The notes beneath the pieces are model-generated. The model did no database searches. It had not been told where the DNA came from and saw only the letters and a list, made by a program, of their open reading frames with translations. A program made the translations under genes and the position numbers. A DNA stretch of 61,637 bases, the filler included, from Candidatus Woesearchaeota archaeon (GTDB lineage Archaea; Nanobdellota; Nanobdellia; SCGC-AAA011-G17; CAYFGV01), in the NCBI GenBank assembly GCA_964342845.1. It is 5 parts of 5 records of this genome, joined end to end, with 100 filler letters (N's around TTAATTAATTAA, not from the genome) between each part and the next. Parts side by side here need not be neighbours in the genome. Positions count along the whole stretch, not along the records: positions 14,157 to 27,614 come from CAYFGV010000017.1; 4 more parts are not named here. One strand, written 5' to 3'. This document shows positions 14,157 through 40,297 of this stretch, in pieces (position 1 is the stretch's first letter; each line of letters starts with the position of its first letter).

Positions 14157-14296
14157 AACTCAACTTTCCTAGGATTCTTAGAAACAAACTCTGAAAACTT
14201 TCGAAGATACAACAGGTACATGTCAACAGTGTGGGGACTCTTTCCTTCGACTTTCAAACGAGTTTCAACCCTTTCCAATGCCTGGTCCCATCTCAT
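14157..14296 (-). CDS. xerA: N-terminal part of the XerA-like tyrosine recombinase (continues at 40242-39561)
   Basis: SAM-like N-terminal domain (GKSPHTVDMYLLYLRKF); 14157-14211 is identical to 40243-40297. Confidence 0.85.
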
Positions 14297-14317
14297 ATAA
14301 TATGCATTATGTAATAT
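14290..14317. other. dif-like Xer recombination site (11-6-11)
   Basis: ATCTCATATAA-TATGCA-TTATGTAATAT has the ATAA-N6-TTAT core of dif sites; it overlaps the xerA ATG (14296-14294). Confidence 0.65.
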
Positions 14318-14825: not shown

Positions 14826-14851
14826 CGGATTAATAGGAATTGGAAGTTAAA

Positions 14852-15274
14852 ATGGTAACAATTTTTGAAAGAAAAAGAGATATGGAAATGTTAGGTAAGA
14901 GGCGTAGAAAGTTTAAAAGTAAGAATATGATTTCTGGACTTAGAACTGCTTTAAAAGTAGGAATACCTACTCTTTGTCTTTGTGGATTAGTATGGGCAGC
15001 TAAGCCTAGTAGGGAATTTATTAGTGAAGCTGTGGCAGATACGACTAATATGTTTGATTTGTATTATCTTAGGGATCGTGTTGAATATACTGTAAAAAAA
15101 GGAGATACTTTATTTAATATTTGGAAAACAGACTATAGTGGTGATGAATGGGATAATTTTAAGGGTTCTGTTGAACGTTTTAATTACTTAAATCCTGAAT
15201 ATAGGGGGGAATTTAATCCAGATAATATAGAATATGGGAAGAGTTTAAGGTTGCCTATGTCTAAAACGTATTAG
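14852..15274 (+). CDS. Membrane-anchored LysM-domain protein
   Basis: Hydrophobic segment, then YTVKKGDTLFNIW...NPDNIEYGKSLRLP. Confidence 0.75.
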   Translation: MVTIFERKRDMEMLGKRRRKFKSKNMISGLRTALKVGIPTLCLCGLVWAAKPSREFISEAVADTTNMFDLYYLRDRVEYTVKKGDTLFNIWKTDYSGDEWDNFKGSVERFNYLNPEYRGEFNPDNIEYGKSLRLPMSKTY

Positions 15275-15314: not shown

Positions 15315-15878
15315 TTAGAGTTTAATATGATACCATGTGACACCTGTTTTGCTATATGAATCTTCTATATTTAGTTTGGTTTTTTCTTTTATTTCATTCA
15401 TATGTTGAATTATTTCTTTTTCAGGTAATCTAAAATACAAAGCTAATAAGTTAGAATCAGCCACTAATGGCTGTTTTTTTGTGAAAATGTAGTAAATGAT
15501 TGATCTTTGGATTCTAGGGAGGTGTGTAAAATCACCATAATTAGGGATTCTCTTATCTTTTATTTGCACATATTTTATATTATTCTTTTTACAGAGCTTT
15601 TCTACATCCTTTTTTGTATCTAAACAGACTAGAAACAGTCTCATTTTTGCTTCTGGTAAAATAAGTTGTATATTTTCTTTATAAGATAATACTTGTTTAA
15701 TGGACGGTTGATCTGCTACTATTTTTATTTCTATTGCTGTAAGTTTTCCGAATTTGTCTTTACATAATAAATCAATCCTTCTTCCTATTGGAAACTGTCT
15801 TTTTATTAGAGATAGACCTGATTCTATTAAGTCTAGGTTTTCAGTTAAAAAATCTTCCAAAAGTTGTTCAGAGATCAT
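15315..15878 (-). CDS. PD-(D/E)XK endonuclease (NucS/EndoMS C-terminal-like) with a probable C-terminal HTH
   Basis: SEQLLEDFL...RQFPI-GRRIDLLCKD...AIEIK...QVLSY. Confidence 0.75.
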   Translation of the reverse strand: MISEQLLEDFLTENLDLIESGLSLIKRQFPIGRRIDLLCKDKFGKLTAIEIKIVADQPSIKQVLSYKENIQLILPEAKMRLFLVCLDTKKDVEKLCKKNNIKYVQIKDKRIPNYGDFTHLPRIQRSIIYYIFTKKQPLVADSNLLALYFRLPEKEIIQHMNEIKEKTKLNIEDSYSKTGVTWYHIKL

Positions 15879-15886
15879 TTTAATGT

Positions 15887-16576
15887 TTAATTTTTAACTT
15901 TCTTTCGTTTTCTTCCAGATATAAATTTAACTTGCCCTTCTCTTAGAAATATAATAAATTTCTCTAATTCTTTTCCTTTTGGCATATGTTTAAGTGCCTT
16001 TTTTGTTAGAGAAATACAAGTTTGACGGCCTCTTCTCTTTTTCATAAGAAAGCCCAAATCCATTAAATTGTCCGTATAACTTGAAATTAACGACCTTACT
16101 TCAGAATAATCTCTATTTGGATTAACTTCATTTGCTAGTCCTTTTAAAGTAATCCATTGGCGAGACCCTTCTTTTGATAGTTTAGTAGTACATATTAATA
16201 AAATTTGTTGTAAAGGCGTTAAATGACTCCATACAGGGTCAGCACCTTTTGCGATTTCTTCTTCTAAAGGGTCATCGTATATTTCTTCTTCTGTTTCTTC
16301 TTGTTCTGATTCTATTTCTTTTATCTTTATTTTTTTAGGCTTTATCTTTTCAGGTTCCTCATTATCTTTGAATCTTAGGATATTTTCGATCATACCCTCT
16401 ATCTTATCCATTCGTCTATGGGCTTGTTTTAATTCTGTTGAAAAATCTTCTTTTGAATTAACAATTTTTGCGTATATGTCTGAGATATCTTGCTTAATAT
16501 TACCAAAAGAATTAGATAGAGAAAGATGCAAGTGATTCCATTTGTGATCATCCTTTTTTTTGAATATACCAAACAT
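15887..16576 (-). CDS. Coiled-coil/linker/winged-helix DNA-binding protein (second of pair)
   Basis: N-terminal amphipathic helix, acidic linker, C-terminal LTPLQQILL...ITLKGLANEV...ISSYTDNLMDLGFLMKKRRGRQTCISLT. Confidence 0.7.
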   Translation of the reverse strand: MFGIFKKKDDHKWNHLHLSLSNSFGNIKQDISDIYAKIVNSKEDFSTELKQAHRRMDKIEGMIENILRFKDNEEPEKIKPKKIKIKEIESEQEETEEEIYDDPLEEEIAKGADPVWSHLTPLQQILLICTTKLSKEGSRQWITLKGLANEVNPNRDYSEVRSLISSYTDNLMDLGFLMKKRRGRQTCISLTKKALKHMPKGKELEKFIIFLREGQVKFISGRKRKKVKN

Positions 16577-16614: not shown

Positions 16615-16803
16615 ATGTTAAGTTGACGTAAAGTTAAACGTAAATAGATATTCCATAGGCGCATGTGAACGTATAGGTTATGTAAAGTTTGCGCATAGTT
16701 TACTAATTGTTAACAATTATATTGGATGAAATAAGGGGTTTTAGACTATTTTAAGGCTGTTTAGATGGTTCACTGGACAATATGAATGTTAAGTGAACGA
16801 TTA
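16615..16803 (+). repeat. Degenerate direct-repeat array (consensus about GTKWACGYAWA), partly 11-bp phased, with a perfect 16-bp palindrome
   Basis: Units at 16622, 16634, 16665, 16676, 16687, 16698, 16709 and 16793; TAATTGTTAACAATTA at 16704-16719. Confidence 0.65.
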
Positions 16804-16857
16804 TTTTGAAGTTTTAAATAAAGTTATAATATGAGAGTTAATTTTGTCTAATTCTAT

Positions 16858-17651
16858 TGTCGAAGTGTCGAAAGATTGTCGAAAAGATAGCTAAATCTAT
16901 TGAATGTTAGCTGAAGTGAGAGTAAATTATAGATCAAAAAGTGTGGATTGTTTTGTAGGAGTAGGGTATCTTATGCGTAAAAGCTTGTCCATGAGCTCTA
17001 AATCCCTTAATTCTGGCTTAATAGTGAGATAAACTCGCCTATTTGTCGAGATTTCCTTGGAAATGGGGAGGTTTTTGAGTAAAATCTCTGAAATATGGTC
17101 TCTGATGGAGCTTTGTGAGAGTTTGAGTTTAGCTGCTATGTCGGAATATGTGATTGGACGCTGTAATTCTTCCTCTAGATGGTAAATTGCCATAAAAACC
17201 ATGAATTCTTTGTCTGTAAGGCTTCTAAATCGGTTGATAAAGTCTGTTTTTAGGTCTTCGAGTGAGTGTATTTGATTGTCTGGTTGTCGAAAGGTTGTCG
17301 ATTGTCTGTCGAGTGTCTGTCGAAAGACCCCTTTATTTCCAGTGGAAAATATTTTTTTATTGTTGGAATTCTTAGTAATTTGAGGTTTTTGAGGCTCAGA
17401 AACTGGTTTTTCTATGTCGGAAGGCTTCTCAAGTGTCGAAAGAAGCTTGTCGATTTTAGCTTTTAAAGCTTGAATTTCAGCATTTTGGACCTTAATTTGG
17501 GTTTCTAAGCTATCTATATGGGCTCTAGACCTAGAAAAAGAGAGTTTAACGTTTTCTTTAAAGATATCTTCTGTCATGGTTGTCGGAAGAGGGATAGAAA
17601 TATAAAGATTTATGTTGTCGGGTTGTCGGAAGAGTTAGAAACTGTTGTCGA
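16858..17651 (+). repeat. Iteron-like array: 16 co-oriented TGTCGR hexamers
   Basis: Starts at 16858, 16866, 16877, 17044, 17139, 17285, 17296, 17307, 17318, 17415, 17434, 17448, 17581, 17616, 17624 and 17646; none seen on the opposite strand in this span. Confidence 0.9.
16927..17577 (-). CDS. Coiled-coil/linker/winged-helix DNA-binding protein (first of pair; candidate initiator)
   Basis: N-terminal coiled coil, low-complexity linker encoded by the repeats, C-terminal LTDKEFMVFMAIY...ITYSDIAAKLKLSQSSIRDHISEI wHTH. Confidence 0.75.
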   Translation of the reverse strand: MTEDIFKENVKLSFSRSRAHIDSLETQIKVQNAEIQALKAKIDKLLSTLEKPSDIEKPVSEPQKPQITKNSNNKKIFSTGNKGVFRQTLDRQSTTFRQPDNQIHSLEDLKTDFINRFRSLTDKEFMVFMAIYHLEEELQRPITYSDIAAKLKLSQSSIRDHISEILLKNLPISKEISTNRRVYLTIKPELRDLELMDKLLRIRYPTPTKQSTLFDL

Positions 17652-18489: not shown

Positions 18490-18897
18490 TTATTTTTTTG
18501 GTTGTAATTTAGGTAGACTGATATGCGGAGGTAGATTTACCTCTTGCGACAATGTTAATGCTTTAATGTTACACTTTGCTAATATTGTGTTGAAAATTAA
18601 AGGCATTATTTCGTTTGGTAGTTTTTGGTCTTTTTTCCATTCTTTTAGGATGTTATCTTTTTCTTTTTTTTCTGCTAAATAAAGAATATGTCCTTTTATT
18701 GAGATATTTCCTAATTTAGGTTCGTAGTCTATTTTGTATTTGAAATTTAATTTTAGAACGTCCTGTTCAGAACCAAAGGTTATTTTTTCTGTTTCTATGT
18801 CTGTTATTCCTAAGTCGTTTTTAATTTGTATTTTTCCTTTTATTGCGCTTGTTTTTTCAACATTTATTTTATCTAGATTAAATCCTATTATTGGCAT
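18490..18897 (-). CDS. Hypothetical protein
   Basis: 135-aa ORF co-oriented with argS; GGTGA RBS. Confidence 0.75.
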   Translation of the reverse strand: MPIIGFNLDKINVEKTSAIKGKIQIKNDLGITDIETEKITFGSEQDVLKLNFKYKIDYEPKLGNISIKGHILYLAEKKEKDNILKEWKKDQKLPNEIMPLIFNTILAKCNIKALTLSQEVNLPPHISLPKLQPKK

Positions 18898-39560: not shown

Positions 39561-40297
39561 CTAAATCTCAACTGTTATATTTTTTAATTCTTTTGTACTA
39601 ACCTTGGTGTAAATTTCGGTCGTACTGATCGAGCTGTGTCCGAGTAGAGCCTGGATATATCGTATATCTACGCCTGATTCAAGCAAATGGGTAGCATATG
39701 AGTGTCTTAAAGTATGGCAAGAAACATCTTTAATGATCCTTGCTTTTTCTGTAGCTTGTTTAAACAAAAAATGAACATGTCTTGTACACAAAGGTTTCCC
39801 ATTAGAAGCAACAAACAGATAATCCTTAATCCTAGAATCTAGTATAAAATCTTTTAATTCCTCTAAAAACCTAGGAGATAAGTAAACAATCCTATCCTTC
39901 CGACCTTTTCCAGCTTTAATATGAAAGGCATTATTGTCAAAATCTAAGTCTTTTAAACGAGCATTTACAGCTTCACTTAACCTTAAGCCACCAGAATATA
40001 TGAATTTGAAGATCATTTTATCTCTTAAAGAACAAACAGAGAAAATATCGTTAATTTCTTTTTTACTTAGAACAACAGGTATTTTTTTGTCTATTTTTAT
40101 AACTAATTTAGTTTTTTCAGAAGTATCAACTATTGGTTTATCTAAGATTTTATTATACAGGTATTTTATTGCTGCTTTTGTCAAAGTTTTTGTTGAGTTT
40201 GAAACATTAGTTAAAGAAGCAAAATATTTTTCAACATCGTAGAACTCAACTTTCCTAGGATTCTTAGAAACAAACTCTGAAAACTTTCGAAGATACA
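39561..40297 (-). CDS. xerA: Tyrosine recombinase XerA-like, catalytic part (N-terminus at 14157-14296; full length 273 aa)
   Basis: GLRLSE (R), GKGRKDR (K), HTLRHSYATH (HxxR), LLGH, TTEIY (Y): all catalytic residues present. Confidence 0.93.

Follow-up and report, generated by a model that had tools for sequence, protein, structure and literature searches.

The window analysed here is a stretch of 61,637 nucleotides from a genome of Candidatus Woesearchaeota archaeon (assembly GCA_964342845.1), in which separate contigs are joined by N spacers. The locus described below is on contig C17 of this source genome (G000) and is centred on a gene encoding a 216-residue winged-helix protein. Its features, in window coordinates, are the following:

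14157..14296, minus strand: 5' end of a xerA-type recombinase gene, the rest of which is on contig C18 (window about 39561-40297, with a 55-base overlap)
14290..14317, no strand: weak dif-like site of 11-6-11 type, in overlap with the start of xerA
15887..16576, minus strand: distant paralog of 229 aa, coiled coil plus winged helix, directly downstream of the 216-aa gene
16845..16882, minus strand: downstream copies, three TGTCGR and one GACA
16916, 17024 and 17262 (span 16916..17266), minus strand: second polar motif, of CTCACTT type, lineage-invariant
16927..17577, minus strand: 216-aa winged-helix gene (ORF; AlphaFold model with pLDDT 83)
16930..16962, minus strand: C-terminal PIP-like tail, residues 206-216, with predicted PCNA docking
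17044, 17139, 17415, 17434 and 17448 (span 17044..17453), minus strand: five scattered in-gene copies
17077..17115, minus strand: recognition-helix codons, residues 155-167, of which 156, 157, 160 and 161 change in step with the repeat unit
17277..17323, minus strand: core array abutting the ORB G-string, four CGACA 11 bp apart with interleaved GACA units
17327..17346, minus strand: full origin recognition box (ORB) with G-string, in frame as STGNKGV, 0 mismatches to the DoriC common ORB
17578..17651, minus strand: upstream copies, likely an operator, four TGTCGR including an exact 14-mer pair

The motif TGTCGR occurs 21 times in the window, where dinucleotide shuffles give an expectation of 8.5 +/- 3.1, and 16 of these copies lie within 16858-17651, throughout on the plus strand as the motif is counted. 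This co-oriented cluster had been reported in an earlier, sequence-only reading, and a recount agrees with it in number and coordinates. The whole genome (573,122 bases) holds 94 copies and its runner-up 800-bp stretch only three, so that the cluster is unique in the genome. Four copies are upstream of the gene, including the 14-mer at 17578 and 17621, whose two occurrences are identical; three are downstream, and the remaining nine are within the gene, in all three reading frames. The proposed 11-bp phasing holds exactly for the core at 17285, 17296, 17307 and 17318 (frames 2, 0, 1 and 2) and for one downstream pair (16866/16877), but not for the other gaps, which range from 8 to 167 bp. The copy at 17415 is not retained in the gene for a protein of 98% identity, which has SEV in place of SDI.

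The heptapeptide STGNKGV, previously taken for a protein motif, is instead the translation of the ORB. Its codons, TCCACTGGAAATAAAGGGGT, match at 20 of 20 positions the common archaeal ORB (Orc1/Cdc6 box) of DoriC, TCCA[CG]T[TG]GAAA[TC][GA]AAGGGGT (PMC4164010 Table 1). It is the sole 0-mismatch ORB of the genome, and the second best has 3 mismatches. Among 100 distinct strong-match loci, 97 show an in-gene ORB on the sense strand (at most 4 mismatches), 95 of them in the same frame. Codon choice within the box is nearly fixed: its Ser codon is TCC in 95/95 (12.6% elsewhere in the same genes), and its two Gly codons are GGA in 90/90 (33% elsewhere) and GGG in 91/92 (19% elsewhere). Furthermore, the ORB is inverted in L030 and in another frame in L019 and L137, where the DNA is kept and the peptide is lost. 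The frozen synonymous sites and the retention of the DNA where the peptide changes show the ORB to be a DNA-level element; the array is one too, and the DNA-level selection suspected at the linker is supported. The genome encodes cdc6, and the box is a predicted site for Orc1/Cdc6.

Two inverted ORBs around an AT-rich element, as in a canonical origin, were not found here: a second antisense ORB near the first was detected in only 2 of the 100 loci (L173 and L180), besides which there are only weak and unconserved ORB-like sites. Candidates for a second inverted ORB in the window, at 17053 (6 mismatches) or 16721 (7 mismatches), were rejected as unconserved. In family f42, which we infer to be Pacearchaeales, the loci L173, L180, L167, L175 and L177 have a further ORB, placed 56-58 bp beyond the first so that the array is enclosed; two of these five have it inverted, the other three direct. 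With 85% AT, the tract at 16801-16840 was considered as an unwinding element, a role that was rejected because no AT excess above +0.04, whether next to the ORB or on the downstream side of the gene, is conserved in the 97 homologs. Being inside a gene, with one ORB and with a separate cdc6 that has its own ORB pair, the locus is not a stand-alone canonical oriC.

In the homologous loci the array starts immediately after the ORB G-string and, across 95 loci, shows a 4-nt period with a near-constant CA (NNCA) and a unit that varies by lineage. Outside f42, 54 of 65 loci repeat 7-mers of the array in the DNA upstream of the same gene; none of the 30 f42 loci does so. The second motif, CTCACTT, is present in 91 of the 100 loci, exclusively on the sense strand (255 observed and 3.4 expected), and the paralog is the foremost candidate for its binder.

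Co-variation between the repeat unit and the protein was analysed in 94 labelled loci, since three of the 97 have no clear unit, on a tree from which linker and helix had been left out, and 134 alignment columns were ranked for changes shared with the repeat. Positions 160, 156, 161 and 157 rank first to fourth, and repeat changes accompany 79% of the changes at 160 and 76% of those at 156, the median column being 37%; the co-variation of repeat and recognition helix expected by the sequence-only reading was thus recovered by homolog alignment, with 160 and 156 as the top two columns. The residue after the invariant Arg159 predicts the repeat unit: D160 pairs with GACA in 31/39 loci and A160 with AGCA in 3/4, while GCxRT helices pair with TTCA units in 10/12 and ISxRD helices with ACCA units in 4/4. 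Independent-pair tests were underpowered and gave only one or two supported pairs, kinship being only partly controlled, and a repeat label taken from upstream DNA alone equals the in-gene label in only 24/61 loci. Because the unit changes between lineages together with residues 160 and 156, and because it recurs upstream of the gene, the protein probably binds its own repeats, as had been suggested.

The AlphaFold model shows an N-terminal coiled coil (residues 3-50), a disordered linker (about 51-105), a winged helix (106-203) and the PIP-like tail. At E<=0.001 the search retrieved 640 representative homologous proteins. No Pfam family matched above cut-off, with DnaD-N weak and below it; the NCBIfam scan of 89 aligned members gave nothing above cut-off, nor did the PDB sequence search (best E 0.18). 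The top Foldseek matches are generic winged-helix regulators, whereas VIA-align places ORC/Cdc6 winged helices first (Z 10.9, 10.4 and 10.3; range 9.7-10.9), a weak ranking with ArsR-type and Rio2 domains within about 1 Z. WhiP is not listed in the Pfam, NCBIfam, PDB-sequence or fold results, and Tus and RTP are not among the top fold or sequence matches.

The gene is found in 53 of 61 relatives of the same order, presumably SCGC-AAA011-G17, essentially single-copy and chromosomal, and in 30 of 31 f42 genomes; a profile search matched 342 of 401 genomes of the class, many of them weakly through shorter homologs. Of 31 titled homologous loci, 25 belong to Candidatus Woesearchaeota or Nanoarchaeia and the other six are weak bacterial matches. 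A study of 208 complete Nanobdellota genomes includes a single-copy winged-helix marker, OG0000296, which may be the same family; the terms 'ORB', 'XerA' and 'unidirectional' have no occurrence in the available part of its text (bioRxiv 10.64898/2026.05.13.725050). In family f7, the gene, cdc6 and the ORB pattern are missing together from all three near-complete genomes (G007, G034 and G053). Five genomes have weak homologs only, with no ORB within 4 mismatches inside them and at 31-815 kb from the closest cdc6 match. One of these short ORB-less homologs, in G160, has xerA and dif at a distance of 4 kb and cdc6 at about 400 kb. L152 (G160:C1:711317-711781) is a longer homolog in a genome without in-gene ORB; an 11-bp repeat of its own is present in its linker and once more downstream. 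L149/L153 (G335:C1:363957-365242) are tandem homologs in which an ORB-like stretch opens the second frame and GTCGAC-type repeats are in the first.

A strict PIP motif (Qxx[LIM]xx-hydrophobic) ends the protein in 33 of 70 loci outside f42 and in 0 of 30 within it, the genome-wide background being 9/560 and 18/703 ORFs, the 18 including FEN1 and PolB. The tail (residues 206-215) modelled with the PCNA of G001, as no clamp was found in G000 (85% complete), reached a score of 0.61 with a best control of 0.02, a run agreement of at least 97% and a partner pLDDT of at least 56. The docking mark is reached by 51 of 78 solved pairs and 2 of 108 mismatched pairs. The tail is thus predicted to dock on PCNA, the score expressing likeness only, as PIP-PCNA is a textbook pair.

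A canonical oriC is located at G000:C13:7722-8069, with opposed ORB-like boxes round an AT-rich stretch, ahead of cdc6, DP1 and DP2; these ORBs are weaker than the in-gene one (3-6 mismatches). The region (G000:C13:7722-17013) is outside the window, and after oriC it encodes a Cdc6 of 768 aa with an intein-like insertion, DP1 and a DP2 of 1642 aa. Both cdc6 and the winged-helix gene were located in 79 genomes and share a contig in 55, and in 55/55 of these cdc6 is upstream of the winged-helix gene, at 2.3-23.8 kb, divergent in 53; in G002 the two are co-directional. The link of the locus to replication that had been proposed is also supported. G-strings face outwards at the origins of G000 and f42, and the in-gene ORB has the orientation of the gene-proximal ORB of oriC.

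Directly downstream, the paralog is related to the 216-aa protein by profile-profile comparison (probability 96.7, E 3.3e-10), pairwise BLASTP being not significant. No internal repeats were found in its gene, and it is placed at most 1.5 kb downstream of the winged-helix gene in 37 of 39 genomes with a match. A ParA-type gene was not found above cut-off within 40 kb or on the locus contig in five genomes, where the PF13614 matches that pass the cut-off are either 40 kb or more away or located on a different contig; the partition complex suggested before is therefore not supported. Other neighbours were recorded. A 135-aa gene at 18490-18897 (minus strand) has no Pfam match, and similar-looking genes are present in the oriC-gene interval of six other genomes, mostly beside oriC, possibly encoding an origin-associated protein. 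A small gene (89-102 aa) is directly upstream of the homolog in G001 (L272, G001:C3:51842-52111) and in G299, and is missing there in G000. Genes for a NucS-like endonuclease (15315-15878, minus strand) and a LysM protein (14840-15274, plus strand) lie between the paralog and xerA.

Of 14 long downstream flanks, 11 contain a xerA gene at up to about 15 kb, and of nine full-length upstream flanks none does, and the G002 homolog scores above the NF040815 archaeal XerA cut-off. The dif of archaeal XerA is an 11-6-11 imperfect inverted repeat (Cortez et al. 2010, PMC2958812). When 16 downstream regions were searched without bias for 11-6-11 inverted repeats that they have in common, one non-AT-rich family emerged, in six genomes, and it fits that definition. 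In G002, with its own seed omitted, the site is the best on the 737-kb contig (23.6 and 15.0 bits for the best and the next), 1.2 kb from the winged-helix gene and 18 kb from oriC. The family presumably resembles bacterial dif. As a whole-genome pattern it matched 14 of 61 and 7 of 31 genomes, with 8 and 2 for the reversed control. Among 18 genomes with both gene and match, the site is 1.2-5.6 kb downstream in 17, and in 13 of 14 non-seed genomes, a count that includes G157, whose site was known before the pattern was written. The candidate of G000 is weak, outside the top profile matches of its genome, and the site at 14290..14317 may instead be an autoregulatory site of xerA. Two dif-like sites 4 kb apart were seen in G007 (family f7), and five in G059 (C6:94399-103720 and C3:17540-19282), which suggests dif-flanked modules.

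Strand composition was measured as keto skew at fourfold-degenerate sites, with plus and minus genes kept separate, so as to be free of the influence of gene orientation that is discussed in bioRxiv 10.1101/2023.11.15.567178. Skew was taken from the full contig in G002 and from sampled windows or 20-kb flanks in the other genomes, among which there is no two-arm reference chromosome. The gene-sense values, upstream/downstream, are:

G002: -0.22/-0.17
G035: -0.16/+0.01
G299: -0.11/-0.03
G270: -0.21/-0.07
G215: -0.13/0.00
G208: -0.13/-0.01
G029: -0.17/-0.17
G119: -0.08/-0.14
G211: -0.11/-0.15
G001: -0.32 (upstream value only)
G136 (exception): 0/0
G193 (exception, weakly positive beyond oriC): +0.03/0
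G157 (exception, weakly positive beyond oriC): +0.09/-0.04
G252 (exception, opposite sign, unbroken): +0.68/+0.50

The clear negative-to-positive flip of a two-way origin is seen in none of the 14 genomes, four of which (G136, G193, G157 and G252) are exceptions to the general pattern; G035 and G299 are near zero across most of the downstream arm and so not one-way throughout. In G002 a single sign holds in 37 of 37 windows on either side of oriC, over a 737-kb sequence that terminates in Ns and was taken as a contig, not as a closed circle. All 21 contigs of G000 above 9 kb are skewed (magnitude 0.13-0.61), C13 on both sides of oriC. The interval between oriC and the gene keeps the upstream sign, -0.24 over 32 long-term resident genes; it is unreversed in G001 (-0.34), G002 (-0.28), G299, G211, G119 and G029, and positive in G215 only, on four genes. 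Furthermore, Lon and cdc6 have opposite compositions that are exchanged between two genomes, with Lon C/A-rich and cdc6 G/T-rich in G001 and the converse in G000, which indicates that the Lon-oriC-cdc6 block was inverted and re-equilibrated while the winged-helix gene kept its strand; the sense strand of the latter stays C/A-rich despite the inversion. At L240/L241 (G252:C4), T exceeds A at fourfold sites to an extreme degree (+0.63 to +0.78), unbroken across oriC, and G007 shows little skew in seven 10-kb windows, which are too noisy to carry weight.

Fork direction was assigned on the assumption of a G/T-rich leading strand; in haloarchaea the leading-strand skew is inverted (PMC1868953). 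Orientations of rRNA, S8 and ribosomal-protein genes gave a mixed guide to the leading strand, and 16S rRNA was not found in the G000 assembly (85% complete).

The explanation that we favour, with somewhat less than even confidence, is that the winged-helix locus is a module joining the start and the finish of replication, which makes replication one-way or lopsided. In two DPANN orders the main chromosome may then be copied with essentially one fork, whose start and finish adjoin at the winged-helix gene, a picture we hold tentatively. The DNA of the gene would combine an initiator box, an array for its own product and a fork stop beside dif, encoded with an uncharacterised protein family; this too seems to us quite possible, if short of probable. 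The recognition helix would bind the NNCA repeats both in its own promoter, in autoregulation, and beside the ORB. The in-gene ORB would be occupied by Orc1/Cdc6, and a helicase loaded at this box would move in the direction of oriC and continue round the chromosome. The fork going the other way would be restrained by the array with its protein coat, by the paralog and by the CTCACTT sites. These would also take in the returning replisome, by way of the PIP tail and beside dif, at which dimers would be resolved by XerA. In genomes with little downstream skew the second fork would often escape. Each ORB of Sulfolobus recruits one MCM hexamer, on the side that faces the unwinding element (PMC12141716). 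The in-gene ORB is oriented like the gene-proximal ORB of oriC, so that a helicase loaded on it would travel towards oriC, in agreement with a G/T-rich leading strand.

This arrangement of start and finish at one gene is supported by the frozen ORB, the helix co-variation, cdc6 upstream, xerA and dif downstream, the one-signed skew, the unreversed interval between oriC and the gene, the strand kept by the gene when the oriC block was inverted, the joint loss in f7 and the predicted PCNA docking. Its main weakness is that neither a conserved AT-rich element nor a partner ORB accompanies the in-gene ORB, and the need of Sulfolobus oriC1 for both of its ORBs (PMC12141716) counts against it. So do the four skew exceptions among 14 genomes, the leading-strand assumption, a dif pattern found in few genomes and also matched by controls, and f42 without PIP tail and upstream repeats; moreover, relatives are non-independent samples.

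An origin-adjacent fork trap, in which oriC fires both ways, the fork bound for the gene is arrested after 2-24 kb and the other ends near dif, draws on the same layout and skew. It appears unlikely to us. In its favour, the unwinding element is at oriC rather than at the gene, the protein has a PIP-like tail, and polar sites are in the gene and promoter of the protein itself, as for tus and rtp (PMC10331603). The skew between oriC and the gene should then be reversed, which is not seen in G001, G002, G299, G211, G119 or G029, and the best ORB of the genome inside the trap would be left unexplained.

Coiled-coil and winged-helix paralogs that coat arrays and tether the origin, dif, and the division or condensin machinery would make the locus a chromosome organiser or centromere-like site, with the skew caused otherwise. 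MatP-matS and parS offer analogies for such paralogs. We consider this improbable: the coiled coil joined to a DNA-binding domain, the conserved paralog and the fixed place between oriC and the dif-like site agree with it, and the ORB-less homolog by xerA and dif in G160 would allow that the family may be terminus-linked by ancestry, but no ParA-type partner was found near the locus in the five genomes, and the frozen ORB, the PIP-like tail and a skew polarity that follows the gene are not accounted for.

The in-gene ORB could also be a satellite Orc1/Cdc6 site that titrates the initiator or loops to oriC, the protein being an autoregulated repressor. Operator-like upstream copies and best Foldseek matches to ordinary regulators point in this direction, and Cdc6-bound ORBs within a gene about 1.5 kb from oriC are a precedent (PMC1904270). 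Such a regulatory circuit nevertheless gives no reason for a skew that is unbroken, for dif and xerA next to the locus or for CTCACTT sites on one strand only, and we judge it a distinctly poor candidate.

Bacteriophage lambda O has its iterons inside its own gene. A lambda-O- or WhiP-like initiator with a stand-alone origin, perhaps from an integrated element, is very unlikely at this locus and the proposal to that effect was not supported, since the phased in-gene repeats that co-vary with the helix, the sub-threshold DnaD-N matches and a winged helix nearest the ORC/Cdc6 type (Z 9.7-10.9) are outweighed by vertical, single-copy chromosomal presence in two orders, a host ORB at its centre, a separate oriC, an unconserved AT-rich tract and, in f7, loss of the gene along with cdc6 rather than its substitution. 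The facing of the in-gene ORB together with the skew is what favours a joint start and finish at the gene over a trap, an organiser, a sink or an iteron origin.

The module bears on how archaeal replication ends and on one-way copying of archaeal main chromosomes. If correct, it explains the strong skew without a flip at oriC in these genomes, and origins called from skew, like growth rates estimated from peak-to-trough ratios, may be misleading in such organisms; it would also be an archaeal system of replication polarity and termination with a readable helix-to-repeat code. In the co-variation of helix and repeat over about 90 genes there is a natural recognition code, and a DNA signal has clearly shaped protein sequence in the linker. 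Protein, sites, initiator box and dif site can be tested with purified components, although the organisms are uncultured.

We know of no archaeal fork-trap protein, and none for these lineages was found in the literature searched. The winged-helix locus is not described in the available parts of that literature, including PMC7111523, PMC5333045 and PMC1868953. Origin-adjacent traps are terRL/terRR (terL/terR) of plasmid R1, tus by oriC2 on chromosome II of Pseudoalteromonas and RTP-ter of B. subtilis (PMC10331603). Fork traps share with our locus polar sites by the origin and in the control region of the terminator gene, one-signed skew and a link to one-way replication (PMC10331603), which for our locus is a proposed one, and the polar sites of Tus/RTP-type systems have their counterpart here in one-strand sites, upstream copies and a downstream dif-like site. 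Those traps are on bacterial plasmids or chromids; here an initiator box and a PIP-like tail belong to the module, and the interval skew does not fit a simple trap.

In Sulfolobus, WhiP at oriC3 is likewise a winged-helix protein that binds repeats at its own gene and is tied to replication (PMC5333045), as we propose here. Unlike WhiP or lambda O, the present protein would depend on the host ORB and is lost with Orc1/Cdc6 in f7, so that it is not a substitute for it. Phased repeats co-varying with the gene, as in an iteron replicon, were found; its mobile context and patchy spread were not, the gene being present in 53/61 genomes of the order and 30/31 of f42, fixed near cdc6.

As for XerA and dif, the candidate site here, strong in G002 and weak in G000, resembles that of other archaea in its 11-6-11 imperfect inverted repeat and in being accompanied by a XerA-family recombinase (PMC2958812). 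In Thermococcales, dif is 120-142 degrees from oriC and is not marked by the position of xerA (PMC2958812), whereas the dif-like site here is about 5-30 kb from oriC.

The canonical archaeal oriC has an ORB-DUE-ORB order before orc1/cdc6 (PMC4164010, PMC12141716). The locus shares the identical ORB with its G-string, and differs in having one ORB, intragenic, and no conserved unwinding element. Finally, dp1 of Thermococcales, the gene for the small subunit of PolD, likewise has ORB and mini-ORB sites in coding sequence near oriC, order-wide, and lies on the same side of oriC as cdc6 (Matsunaga et al. 2007, PMC1904270); at the present locus, by comparison, one full ORB, fused to an array that differs by lineage and co-varies with the encoded protein, is carried by an uncharacterised gene for a DNA-binding protein on the opposite side of oriC, with dif nearby.
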